Program-made: the position numbers
Shown here: positions 9,001-12,000 of the stretch, in pieces
Numbering within the stretch: position 1 is the stretch's first letter
Layout: each line of letters begins with the position of its first letter
Virus record (IMG/VR): IMGVR_UViG_2654587686_000012
DNA length: 12,849 nt
DNA from: a virus
Lineage: Duplodnaviria > Heunggongvirae > Uroviricota > Caudoviricetes
Strand: one strand, 5' to 3'

Positions 9001-12000
9001 TTTCTTCTTCAACGATGATTTCTGAAACATTCAATATTTCATTAGATTCGTTTTCTTTCTCAGAAGGATCAGGTAGTGATGACTCTCTAGGGGGAGTAAT
9101 ATGTGCATCTGTGAGAGGTAGCGCACGTAATTTTAATGGACGTTTTGGGATTCGTTCTCCGACCTCTTCTAAAAGACCGATTTTAATCATAAGACCAATC
9201 AATTCATTAACTGTCTTACGGCTACAGCCACAAACTTTACTTAACTTCGTTTGTGTTTCAAAACATATCCCCCCTGATTTCTCCCAATCTGAAACATAGC
9301 AATATAATTTTTGCATTTCTGCACTAAACTTCGCTTTTCCATCCTCAATATTTGAGGAGTAGATGAATTCAATCTCACAAAAGTAGTGTGGTATATTCAA
9401 AGTTCGGTCTTTAATTTCTCCTGTTTGTTGATCAACATACTGGTATTTTTCACGAATCAATTTAATTTTAGACATTAGAATTATCTCCTTATAAATCACG
9501 CTTAATGCGCTACTAAAGTGAATGAGGATCACTTACCCTTTTTTTGTTTGATGTTCTCTGCTGCTTCAGTAATGATTTCTAACATCAAATCACTGACCAT
9601 AATTTGCCTTTTCTTGGCTTCAGCAAATAAAATCTTGAAAATTTCAGGGTCAACGTGTAGGTAAGTGCGTGGAATTGGTTTCTTGGTTTCGCTCATAGTT
9701 TTCTCCTTCTCCTGTTATTATTCTTTCTCTGCTCCTGCCTTACGCAGTTCATCAATAATTTTTAGTGCATCGTCAAAACATTTTTCACGCTCTGGATAAC
9801 CACAGCGTCGCGCTGTGTTCCTGTTCATCCTTACTTTAAAACGATTGATCTCACCACGTTTCCAGGCTTCAACTACATCCTGGGGAGTGAAATACTTCAT
9901 TAATTAACCTCCTATTCTATTTGGTTAAAAGAAAAAACACCTTGCAAGCCTTGTTGGGCTTCAAAGTGCGGTGCATTGGTTTAATTACTTAGAGGATAAG
10001 AATGTTTTCTGTCCCTAATATTACTTTACCACGACTAAAAGCTTTTGTCAACCCCTATCCATAAAAATATTGATCATTTTCAGTGTGTTATAATTTTTCT
10101 TAGCAATTCGTGCTCTTACGGGTGCTCCTATTCTTCCTTATTCTCTAAAACGCTCTAAAACGCCCTCTGACGAGGTTTTGATAAATACAATACATTCACT
10201 TATGTAGAGGCTGTTTAGCTCGTCAGAGGCTTATTTAAGGGGCTTATTTTGTATTTGTTAGGTATATGGGAAGATGATGATAGATAAAATCTAATTTCAG
10301 ACATCTTATAAAATACCTGTAAAGCTCCTCAGAAGCTCTATAACGAGCTAATCTATTACCGCTAAGTGTTTCCCTGCCTTATATACGTTTAGCTCGCCTA
10401 CGGCTTGATTTAAGCGGTAGAATCTTATTTAACCTTCAACTACTAAAACCATTCTTTCTTTTTTGTTTGTTGTTGGTTGTTGTCTGTGTCTATGTGCTAA
10501 CATCGCTAACGCGTAGCACACAAGGTTATTGCACTCGTCAGAGTATTGCACAATAGATTTTCTCTTAAATAGATTGATGATCGTTAGATTGGCGTAAGCC
10601 TCATCAATGGAACTATTGAAGCGCACAGCGCAAGACTATTTAGCCTTACGCAAGCCGTAGGCTATTTGCACATAGTAGATTACATATTCGTTGTGAGCGG
10701 CATTAGCGAACATATATCTACTAACTAACATCAACAAACAAAAACTATGTGTTATGACAAGCAGTCTAACGACTAACACTCTAACTTGTGCAAGGTTCTG
10801 GCGAATGCCAATAGATTAAGGGATAGTCAAAGACTTCCTAACGGGTATCCCTATAATTATTCTTATAAAGATAAAAAAGAATTATATTATATAGTTTAAT
10901 AGTTAGTTTTATTATTAGTATTATAGATGTTAGTCTTATTGTGTAACCTTTCGTTACAACCAATCATCTGCCGATGTAACGTATCGTTACTACCGATGTG
11001 TAATATCGTTACATTCAATAATTAGTCTATGTAACGAATCGTTACTACAAAATTTCTTACAGAGAGTATTTCAGATAGCTGAATGTAACCCATCGTTACA
11101 TCCATCGTTACATCCATTTATCACATAACATCTGTGCAATGATCTTCTAAAAGTGTTTCTTACTATCAAAAATTAAACATCTAAAACAGGCTTAAATTCA
11201 ATGTAATTGATGATTAATCCCTGTGTAATTCCTACGTAAAAATTCAATGAAAAGTAGCTTAAAAGTGCAATTCTTACTTTCTTCACTTTTACATCACTTT
11301 CGCAAAGCCTTGTGTAATGCGGCATATAGCGCATCACTGCAAAATTGTTGCTCAATAAACGTTCTATCATTTGTCGAACAAGTTTTCTTTAATGCAACAA
11401 AAAATTATTTTTTCAAAATAAACACACCATTTAATAGCTTGCTAATTTTACCAAAACGTAACTACATGCTTCTCATGCAAGACGTGTAGTGATAAAGCAG
11501 GCTAAATCACCACACTAAAAACCTTCGAATTTCGTAGTGAAAAAAGTCCTTTACACACCTAATCAACACGATCAATAATCACTACACACAAATCAACACA
11601 GAAGGAAAATGAAAATGGCTAATATTGGATACATTAGGGTATCGACTGTGCAACAAAACACAGACCGTCAATTAGCTGGAGTAACTCTTGATAAAGTCTT
11701 TGAAGATAAAGCGTCAGGCAAGAACACTCAGCGCCCACAGTTTGAGGCAATGATGAACTATGTGCGGGAGGGTGACGTGTTACACGTCCATAGTATTGAT
11801 CGCCTTTGTCGTAATACAGCCGACCTTCTGGCAACGGTTGAGCAATTAACAGAGCGCGGCGTGTCTGTGCATTTCCATAAAGAAGACTTTAAGACAGGGA
11901 AGAACTCTCCCGCAGGGAATATGATGCTCACAGTGCTTGCAGCAGTGGCACAAATGGAGCGTGAAATGATGCTTGAGCGGCAACGTGAAGGGATCGCCGC

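Follow-up and report, generated by a model that had tools for sequence, protein, structure and literature searches.

The virus record IMGVR_UViG_2654587686_000012 of IMG/VR holds a chromosomal island of Escherichia coli of ~13 kb, of which 12,849 bp were analysed (this whole stretch is called the window below), and it is a member of the putative E. coli phage-satellite family of Barth, Dunham & Seed 2023 (PMC10448857). We find that an array of short inverted repeats of the form GTAAC-N5-GTTAC, together with the A/T-rich block next to it, is probably the iteron replication origin of the island with its unwinding element. The repeats are very likely bound by the 224-residue protein of the island, whose N-terminal domain co-varies with them. 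By analogy with a known satellite of Vibrio cholerae, the array is also the predicted target of helper-phage nucleases built with copies of the initiator's DNA-binding domain. The features concerned are given by window position; related islands and phage loci are cited by locus number (L001 and so on), and type A denotes the repeat type of the window.

8801-9475, minus strand: 224-residue helix-turn-helix protein (RepA-like, putative initiator; gene repA)
9900-11609, unstranded: 1.7-kb gene-free stretch with the array
10852-10931, unstranded: A/T-rich block, putative DNA-unwinding element, 71 of 80 bp A+T
10943-10957, unstranded: iteron 1, GTAACCTTTCGTTAC, exact, kept in all type A islands
10976-10990, unstranded: iteron 2, GTAACGTATCGTTAC, exact, kept in type A islands
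10998-11012, unstranded: iteron 3, degenerate, GTGTAATATCGTTAC, right half intact (ATCGTTAC), left half diverged
11031-11045, unstranded: iteron 4, GTAACGAATCGTTAC, exact, kept in type A islands, deleted in L005
11085-11099, unstranded: iteron 5, GTAACCCATCGTTAC, exact, kept in type A islands
11104-11111, plus strand: extra right half-site, ATCGTTAC, octamer match

Exact matches to GTAAC-N5-GTTAC occur four times in the window, all within 10943-11099, against an expectation of 0.20 from 200 shuffles, none of which reached four. Counting the pentamers GTAAC and GTTAC, as the first-pass annotation of this DNA had proposed, placed 10 of the 35 copies of the window within 169 bp (binomial P = 2e-11), and five of the six copies of the octamer ATCGTTAC lie inside the array. 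The counts confirm the arrangement which that annotation had described, namely four full sites, a degenerate site and an extra half-site within ~170 bp beside an A/T block. It had also named a common host repeat as the finding that would overturn its proposal; in blastn and genome searches the array was found in this island family only, and the ~385 kb of fetched loci hold no GTAAC-N5-GTTAC outside homologous arrays. Centre-to-centre spacings of 33, 22, 33 and 54 bp correspond to 3.1, 2.1, 3.1 and 5.1 helical turns, so that all sites lie on one face of the helix. The sites had been taken for palindromes, which is true of their inverted 5-bp arms, but the right half is longer, (A)TCGTTAC, with TCGTTAC in every copy; the sites are semi-palindromic and, given the extended right half, can be read as direct repeats too. 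According to PMC7145576, iterons of RepA_N initiators are direct repeats of semi-palindromic form whose inverted sub-repeats measure 5 bp or more; this description fits the array, which has 5-bp arms and counts four exact sites besides a degenerate one and a half-site. The degenerate iteron 3 stands in register with iteron 2 (repeat family D2) and has the same form in all type A islands. Repeat copy number differs among close relatives, from 3-9 copies in type C and 1.5-4 in type B to one unit fewer in L005, where the deletion of iteron 4 points to copy-number variation between repeats. The last 12 bp of the array in the window (CCATCGTTACAT, within 11092-11115) are a tandem duplication that the other type A islands lack.

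No other 80 bp in the window are as A/T-rich or, by nearest-neighbour duplex stability, as unstable as the block at 10852-10931 (-75.3 kcal/mol; window mean -104.3, standard deviation 7.0), which lies ~4 standard deviations off the mean. In all five island types described below the same block adjoins the cognate array, which starts within ~30 bp of it. The coding strand switches inside the gene-free region bearing the array and the cumulative GC-skew minimum lies just to the right, at ~11.0-12.0 kb, although this is weak evidence. Neither the DnaA box TTATNCACA (up to one mismatch) nor the IHF consensus was found in 9900-11609, and a DnaA-dependent origin was rejected for want of such a box in that interval. 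The left edge of the block carries a conserved TATAAT (10853-10858), which in L006:2632-2659 belongs to a 10-of-12 rightward promoter-like match; transcription from there would cross the A/T block and the repeats. In the right flank common to all origin types, TGTGYAAT stands at 11133, 11222 and 11311 on the plus strand with 89-bp spacing. The window holds seven copies of it against 1.4 expected, further CTGTGTAAT-like copies were seen by eye in L008, and the motif could be a site for a conserved factor.

Thirty related islands were retrieved, 29 of them with an intact gene for the 224-residue protein, that of L009 having been lost to insertion sequence elements. Since a search of genome contigs with the protein returned only two loci, both of type A, the range of types was gathered from encoding contigs and from genomes of E. 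coli. Wherever the gene is intact (29 of 29 islands), five repeat types correspond one-to-one to five types of the N-terminal domain; they are listed here with the neighbouring features to which the array was compared.

Type A: N-terminal domain starting MSKIKLIREKYQ..., repeat GTAAC-N5-GTTAC; window, L001-3, L005, L007, L021-24
Type B: N-terminal domain starting MIKNIKTIAEAK..., repeat GGAAN-N3-NTTCC; L006 (O104:H4 C227-11), L016-20
Type C: N-terminal domain starting MINQLTFTKHYD..., 22-bp TAGCTCACAGTGACCTACCCCC repeats; L008, L010-15
Type D: N-terminal domain starting MIKHTKPFLGID..., repeat TATCA-N4-TGATAGGGG; L029, L031
Type E: N-terminal domain starting MINEEQFVKVPM..., repeat AACAG-N4-CTGT(T/G)NGGG; L028, L030
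9529-9696, minus strand: 55-residue open reading frame (ORF) beside repA
9718-9900, minus strand: 60-residue ORF
10023-10051, minus strand: promoter-like site of the leftward operon (genes for the 60-residue and 55-residue proteins, RepA and an 89-residue protein), TTGACA-17-TAAAGT with extended TG
10923-11105, unstranded: swappable origin cassette with type A iterons, no BLAST alignment inside against types B, C and E
11609-12166, plus strand: small serine recombinase (PF00239 1e-38; phrog_125 2e-62)

The copies of the cognate array are ~two helical turns apart in every island. Islands of one type are partly clonal, so that the 29 cannot be counted as independent events, and what the sample amounts to is five types in several backgrounds. 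Comparison of 8400-12300 with types B, C and E revealed 92-95% identity throughout but for two segments, i.e. the region of the RepA N-terminal domain (with or without the 55-residue gene) and 10923-11105. Around the latter, BLAST identity is 92-95% up to 10912-10943 and resumes from 11106, while by eye the cassette starts after GTTAGTCTTATTGTG (~10943) and ends at ~11103. The pairing is kept across backgrounds, as either C-terminal variant of RepA is found with type A and also with type C, and the tRNA integration sites differ. Judged by this co-variation, the array is half of a specificity pair with the N-terminal domain of the 224-residue protein, and the two are exchanged as a pair. The first-pass annotation had put forward this protein, the 89-residue and 55-residue proteins and the recombinase as candidate binders; the first is supported by its one-to-one co-variation, while the two small proteins do not follow the array type. 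The 60-residue and 89-residue proteins are 94-99% identical in islands with arrays A, B, C and E, and the 55-residue protein exists in one variant (98-100% identical) with arrays A and C and in a 44% variant with C, D and E. By this comparison, the 55-residue protein is a neighbour of repA and not the array binder.

On the distal side of the cognate array, repeats of non-cognate types follow one another in single or few copies, and the layers keep one order (A/T block, B, D, E, C, A, right flank); they were seen at L006:2700-2900, L008:2400-2620, L009:2380-2620, L028, L029 and L031, in DNA homologous to 10923-11115. The half-site CGTTACATCC (11105-11114) stands in the right flank common to all five types, suggesting that type A is the oldest layer.

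Residues 1-117 of the 224-residue protein (9125-9475) form a winged-helix DNA-binding domain, here of type A. The rest of the protein (residues 118-224) has an invariant junction, ALPLTDAHITPP, a linker that is acidic and disordered, a small helical domain and a tail ending ...YDSIPF. The protein is modular, with N-terminal types A to C joined to two unrelated C-terminal types. Pfam HTH_36 matches all six family members tested, down to 4e-15; for type A the match has 22 bits and is below the cut-off of 25. PHROG families of replication-initiation, O-like and DnaD-like loader proteins match type A at best with 9e-6 (range to 2e-3) and types D and E with 1e-13 to 5e-17. The O-like phrog_391 and phrog_345 are matched at 1.5e-4 and 6e-4, and Pfam Phage_rep_O at 0.014 by one relative only. 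In the AlphaFold2 model, of moderate confidence (mean predicted local distance difference test score 68.5; 72-92 over residues 31-120), a winged helix is followed by a disordered acidic linker (131-164) and three C-terminal helices. The longest Foldseek matches of this model in the PDB are the N-terminal domains of the initiators of the staphylococcal RepA_N plasmids pSK41 and pTZ2162 (4pql, 4pt7, 4pta and 5kbj; 114-129 columns, probability 0.95-1.0, E 2.5e-3 to 0.05), and the other matches are generic winged helices of ~70 columns, many MarR-like proteins being among the structural neighbours. 4PTA and 4PT7 are RepA_N initiators of staphylococcal plasmids (PMC7145576), and the N-terminal domain of the satellites has been named RepA_N (PMC10448857). 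The pSK41 and pTZ2162 proteins differ from ours in that they belong to Gram-positive plasmids, that sequence similarity is below detection and that the poly-A centre of their repeats is missing in the repeats of the window. Pfam RepA_N did not match the 224-residue protein, NCBIfam holds no model for it, and protein and profile searches of PDB sequences returned generic winged-helix or designed-repeat matches only. With these weak fold E-values and no Pfam RepA_N match, membership of the RepA_N family is supported but not proven, and the family matches and the model together support an N-terminal domain of replication-initiator type.

The two C-terminal variants of RepA, unrelated in other respects, have the ending ...YDSIPF or ...YEDFDIPF (window 8801-8830; alignments A1 and A2), with Tyr, Pro and Phe invariant in 20 sequences. 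This tail resembles the C-terminal tip of E. coli SSB, DFDDDIPF, which is a docking point for many replication and repair proteins. The tail of RepA may dock an SSB-interacting protein of the primosome or replisome at the melted A/T block.

Copies of the satellite domains are also found in phages. Over 625 bp (9084-9708) the window is 95.5% identical to the phi92-like phage inny, in which inny_184 (367 residues; L004:3289-4392) combines domains of types A and B with a C-terminal nuclease domain. The latter matches the endonuclease family phrog_681 (2e-19), MUG113 (2e-4, at the cut-off) and T5orf172 (0.025); in addition, it resembles putative homing endonucleases that T5-like phages encode. The same architecture is seen in muut_154 (L025:1228-2226; domains D and B) and in QNJ49226 of phage Mt1B1_P17 (L027:1414-2400; domains E and B). 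An unannotated ORF of 321 residues in BI-EHEC (OL505078; L026:1414-2379) joins an E-like and a type B domain to the nuclease, and on this domain composition BI-EHEC (genus Phapecoctavirus) is a fourth phage with an odn homolog; Inny, Muut and Mt1B1_P17 have been reported as carriers of odn homologs, and cutting of the origin has been predicted for these coliphages and satellites (PMC10448857). The first domains of the phage proteins are 99.7-100% identical in nucleotides to chromosomal island genes, and the RepA N-terminal domain of the window is 95% identical to that of inny_184. The second domain common to inny_184, muut_154 and Mt1B1_P17 shares 261 bp at 93% identity with the type B RepA gene (L006:714-1382), which contradicts the legend of Figure 8 in PMC10448857, where the second RepA_N domain is said to be without detectable satellite homolog. 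Each phage nuclease may thus hit two origin types: types A and B are the predicted targets of the inny protein, D and B of the muut protein and E and B of those of Mt1B1_P17 and BI-EHEC, and none of the phage chimeras found is predicted to target type C. The inny genome (147 kb) contains neither type A sites nor arrays of any type, and blastn against phage records gave no match to the array, so that the phage proteins are without a cognate array at home. The 55-residue gene, for whose product no family match was found, also stands directly upstream of the odn homolog in inny (L004:4430-4612) and muut (L025:1009-1176), with 98% protein identity, and so accompanies the copied domain in these two phages.

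Taken together, the co-variation of the N-terminal domain, its initiator-type fold and the least stable DNA of the element adjoining the array make an iteron-plus-unwinding-element origin, as the first-pass annotation had considered, the best-supported reading. In such an origin, the RepA-like protein would be made from the leftward operon, and its dimers would bind through the N-terminal winged helix to the five or six semi-palindromic repeats, with the core (T)GTAAC-N5-GTTAC and the extended right half TCGTTAC. The phasing of the repeats would bring all bound dimers to the same side of the DNA, and the assembly would open the adjacent 80-bp A/T block. The C-terminal part of RepA (acidic linker, helical domain and IPF-ending tail) would then bring in a helicase and primase of the host or of the helper phage, since no helicase or primase gene was found in the island with Pfam and PHROG. 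Repeats and DNA-binding domain would be traded jointly within the satellite family, in which at least five such pairs are seen. The likely pressure comes from Stephanstirmvirinae helpers, whose fusions of the domain to a T5orf172/GIY-YIG-type nuclease are predicted origin cutters; satellites would escape by swapping the repeat cassette and the matching domain. Leftover repeats may act as decoys or permit cross-activation. The whole chain, with cassette and domain co-swapped 1.4 kb apart, two-headed nucleases as the driver, leftover repeats and initiation through mimicry of the SSB tip, is proposed tentatively and, as a whole, is rather doubtful.

Several points weigh against an origin. Its function is something we infer, and the array lies 1.45 kb from repA. 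The co-variation speaks for a specificity pair only, and a regulator with its operators or a packaging pair would co-vary equally and suit a nuclease no less well as a target. Islands whose RepA is of type C or D (L008, L009, L010 and L029) still contain intact type A sites, and the type A array (at least 80% coverage) occurs in 101 genomes, or 321 with any match, while the type A domain is present in 76. These counts are not a clean test of co-occurrence, since islands of other types retain relic arrays; the surplus type A sites are either tolerated relics or sites that serve something else too. Moreover, the type B island L020 retains only ~1.5 repeats, and the sequence evidence for a type A initiator is weak (HTH_36 below the cut-off, no RepA_N match, generic PDB matches and a moderate model).

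Among the alternatives, an array of operators survives best, although we regard it as unlikely in place of an origin. The 224-residue protein would then be mainly a transcription regulator, as its RefSeq annotation has it, and the A/T block promoter or UP-element DNA. The operators would control a leftward promoter over site 1 or transcription towards the recombinase, and such a role, in line with the fact that iterons often serve as operators too, may coexist with that of an origin. A 10-of-12 promoter-like match, with GTTACA as -35 (10947-10942) in iteron 1 and TATAAT as -10 (10925-10920) at the edge of the A/T block, would suit this, as would the many MarR-like structural neighbours of the winged-helix protein and the co-variation, which suits any specific binder. 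However, promoter-like matches in the region are at the chance number, and the one over a site is present in type A only, with none at the equivalent place in types B and C by consensus scans, itself weak evidence. The promoter-like site of the operon is ~870 bp away and 8471-10943 holds no GTAAC or GTTAC, so there are no RepA sites at that element. Four to nine phased copies beside the least stable DNA of the element are rather origin-like, the PHROG matches are replication initiators, and no other candidate origin or initiator was found in the island. The multi-operator proposal of the first-pass annotation fares worse on these data than its origin proposal, and an operator role alongside replication is still compatible with them.

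Quite improbable is a packaging signal, i.e. a pac-like array read by the 224-residue protein as a small terminase that steers the helper terminase to island DNA. Small terminases have an N-terminal winged helix and bind repeated sites, which the protein and the array would match; the island is without a terminase, and a packaging site would suit the phage nuclease as a target. The protein, however, has no terminase-family match and matches replication-initiator families only, its longest structural matches are plasmid initiators, and the invariant A/T-block partner is typical of origins.

Accessory sites of the serine recombinase, which the first-pass annotation had also suggested, or crossover sites for it (res- or hix-like) are very improbable. 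The gene begins 500 bp away, at 11609, and its product matches DNA invertases and resolvases, but this protein hardly varies (99-100% identity) between islands that have arrays of types A, B, C and E, and arrays are present without a serine recombinase in L016-20, which have a tyrosine recombinase instead, and in L010, where none is annotated. Furthermore, sites of small serine recombinases have ~12-bp half-sites around a 2-bp core, unlike the 5-bp half-sites 10 bp apart of the array. An invertible segment, suspected from an opposite-strand gene for 183 residues in L012 and L014, was rejected, as BLAST identified a different gene and not an inverted copy. Chance clustering or a common host repeat can practically be dismissed in view of the shuffles, the pentamer count, the ~385 kb of loci and the confinement of the array to this island family.

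The closest parallel to the replication origin proposed here is that of the PLE satellite, its RepA and the nuclease Odn of phage ICP1 (PMC7145576, PMC8263062). In both cases the satellite depends on a lytic myovirus, here as predicted from sequence, the putative origin lies in non-coding DNA with semi-palindromic repeats, the initiator has a RepA_N-type N-terminal domain (putatively so in the window) and comes without helicase or primase, and replicon modules of domain and origin are exchanged between satellites. In both, too, the helper, in E. coli a predicted one, carries a chimera of a satellite-type RepA_N domain and a T5orf172-type domain. Odn cuts the PLE origin only when the iterons are present, and PLEs escape through changed iterons or a swap of the replicon module (PMC8263062). 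The two systems have no detectable sequence homology. The repeats of the window are of 15 bp with 5-bp arms in 4-6 copies, those of PLE three of ~30 bp, and unlike PLE the window has an obvious adjoining A/T block of 80 bp and its family at least five specificity types. The coliphage nucleases have two satellite-type domains in tandem, unlike Odn, and their identity to the satellite domains is 93-100% in nucleotides compared with 42% in protein for Odn. PLE and Odn have been worked out experimentally, whereas the system of the window is known here from its sequence.

The first-pass annotation had compared the array to the origin of phage lambda. In lambda, inverted-repeat sites stand beside an A/T-rich region, O dimers bind through the N-terminal domain and the C-terminal part recruits the helicase loader. 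This likeness holds for the layout, with four or more inverted-repeat sites beside A/T-rich DNA and weak O-like matches in PHROG and Pfam. It fails on position, because the array is non-coding and 1.45 kb upstream of the initiator gene and not within it as in O, and the island has no gene for a P-like loader. SaPI origins have iterons flanking an A/T-rich region, and the specificity of Rep for its origin is matched between islands; Rep is a helicase and the primase is separate. Satellite iterons, an A/T-rich region and matched specificity are thus shared with SaPIs, while the 224-residue protein, unlike SaPI Rep, is neither helicase nor primase.

The window is 99.8% identical to islands next to tRNA-Leu in strains AR Bank #0349 and 2016C-3878 (CP041996, CP029747), and the genomes nearest to it are among the entries of the satellite table (Table S6) of PMC10448857 (CP041996, CP029747 and CP011331). 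Other related islands are found at tRNA-Thr and tRNA-Gly. DNA resembling 10700-11300 is present in 740 of 5,426 complete E. coli genomes (~14%), including O104:H4 and ST131. Features of the satellite family are present in the window, namely the integrase, the tRNA-linked site, capsid, tape-measure and baseplate genes and a RepA N-terminal domain that matches a phage odn homolog. The satellites of PMC10448857 likewise have an integrase with a tRNA site, homologs of major capsid, tape-measure and baseplate-hub proteins and a modular RepA N-terminal domain. No terminase or portal gene was found among the window proteins with Pfam and PHROG. The remaining genes referred to are:

540-1811, plus strand: tyrosine integrase (PF00589)
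1892-2569, minus strand: Dit-like baseplate protein (PF21821)
2617-4458, minus strand: tape-measure-like protein (phrog_16051)
4854-5885, minus strand: capsid-like protein (phrog_29; PF03864 in homologs)

The Dit-like protein shares 48% identity with inny_106 and the tape-measure-like protein 31% with inny_105 (L033:10258-13069), which points to Stephanstirmvirinae as helpers. Positions 98-418 resemble a Salmonella tRNA-Leu region (92%, and 100% over 376-418); they probably represent the tRNA 3' end as copied in the attachment site next to the integrase, i.e. a relic of tRNA-Leu. ARAGORN found no tRNA in the window, and in L001 an intact tRNA-Leu lies immediately past its right end. Between the 60-residue gene and the A/T block, ~950 bp (9900-10850) are without annotated gene and without Rfam match; they are 92-94% conserved in types B, C and E, while in a more distant subfamily part of them cannot be aligned. 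A second gene-free stretch at 6530-7470 includes the 80 bp (7014-7093) that rank second in the window for A/T content, and a repeat array looked for there was not found. In the type B islands L016-L020 (~60-860) a tyrosine recombinase of 192 residues (PF00589) takes the place of the serine recombinase, and in L012 and L014 the unrelated 183-residue gene does. The conjugative E. coli plasmid NZ_CP126938.1 carries a copy of the A/T block and array (42415-42670, 99.6% identical) and is also the sole plasmid match for the type A domain. Rfam searches of the whole window (E up to 1) gave two chance-level matches only (mir-784 at 11058-11136, with 28 bits where the threshold is 94, and a histone stem-loop) and thus no known RNA.

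The satellite family, with 224 putative E. coli members and modular RepA N-terminal domains (PMC10448857), and the phage nucleases have been published already, while the mapped origin, the five repeat-domain pairs and the second target of the nucleases appear to be new. The accessible part of PMC10448857 does not locate the origin, 'iteron' being absent from its text and supplements and 'origin of replication' from its supplements, and our literature search returned no later paper on these satellites. The initiation mechanism of RepA_N proteins has been called unknown (PMC7145576); mimicry of the SSB tip, if true, would be a concrete route of initiation for RepA_N-type proteins.

To our knowledge, PLE and ICP1 of V. 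cholerae are the only pair for which a phage nuclease derived from the initiator domain of a satellite and cutting its origin has been worked out experimentally. The same contest had been predicted in E. coli, but its target DNA had not previously been pointed out. The origin map gives exact substrates, i.e. 10943-11111 and the A/T block plus four other repeat types, in a tractable host, and the five matched domain-site pairs are a natural set for the study of specificity change in winged-helix proteins. As islands of this family reside in ~14% of complete E. coli genomes, they may influence how well therapy with phi92-like or phAPEC8-like phages works.

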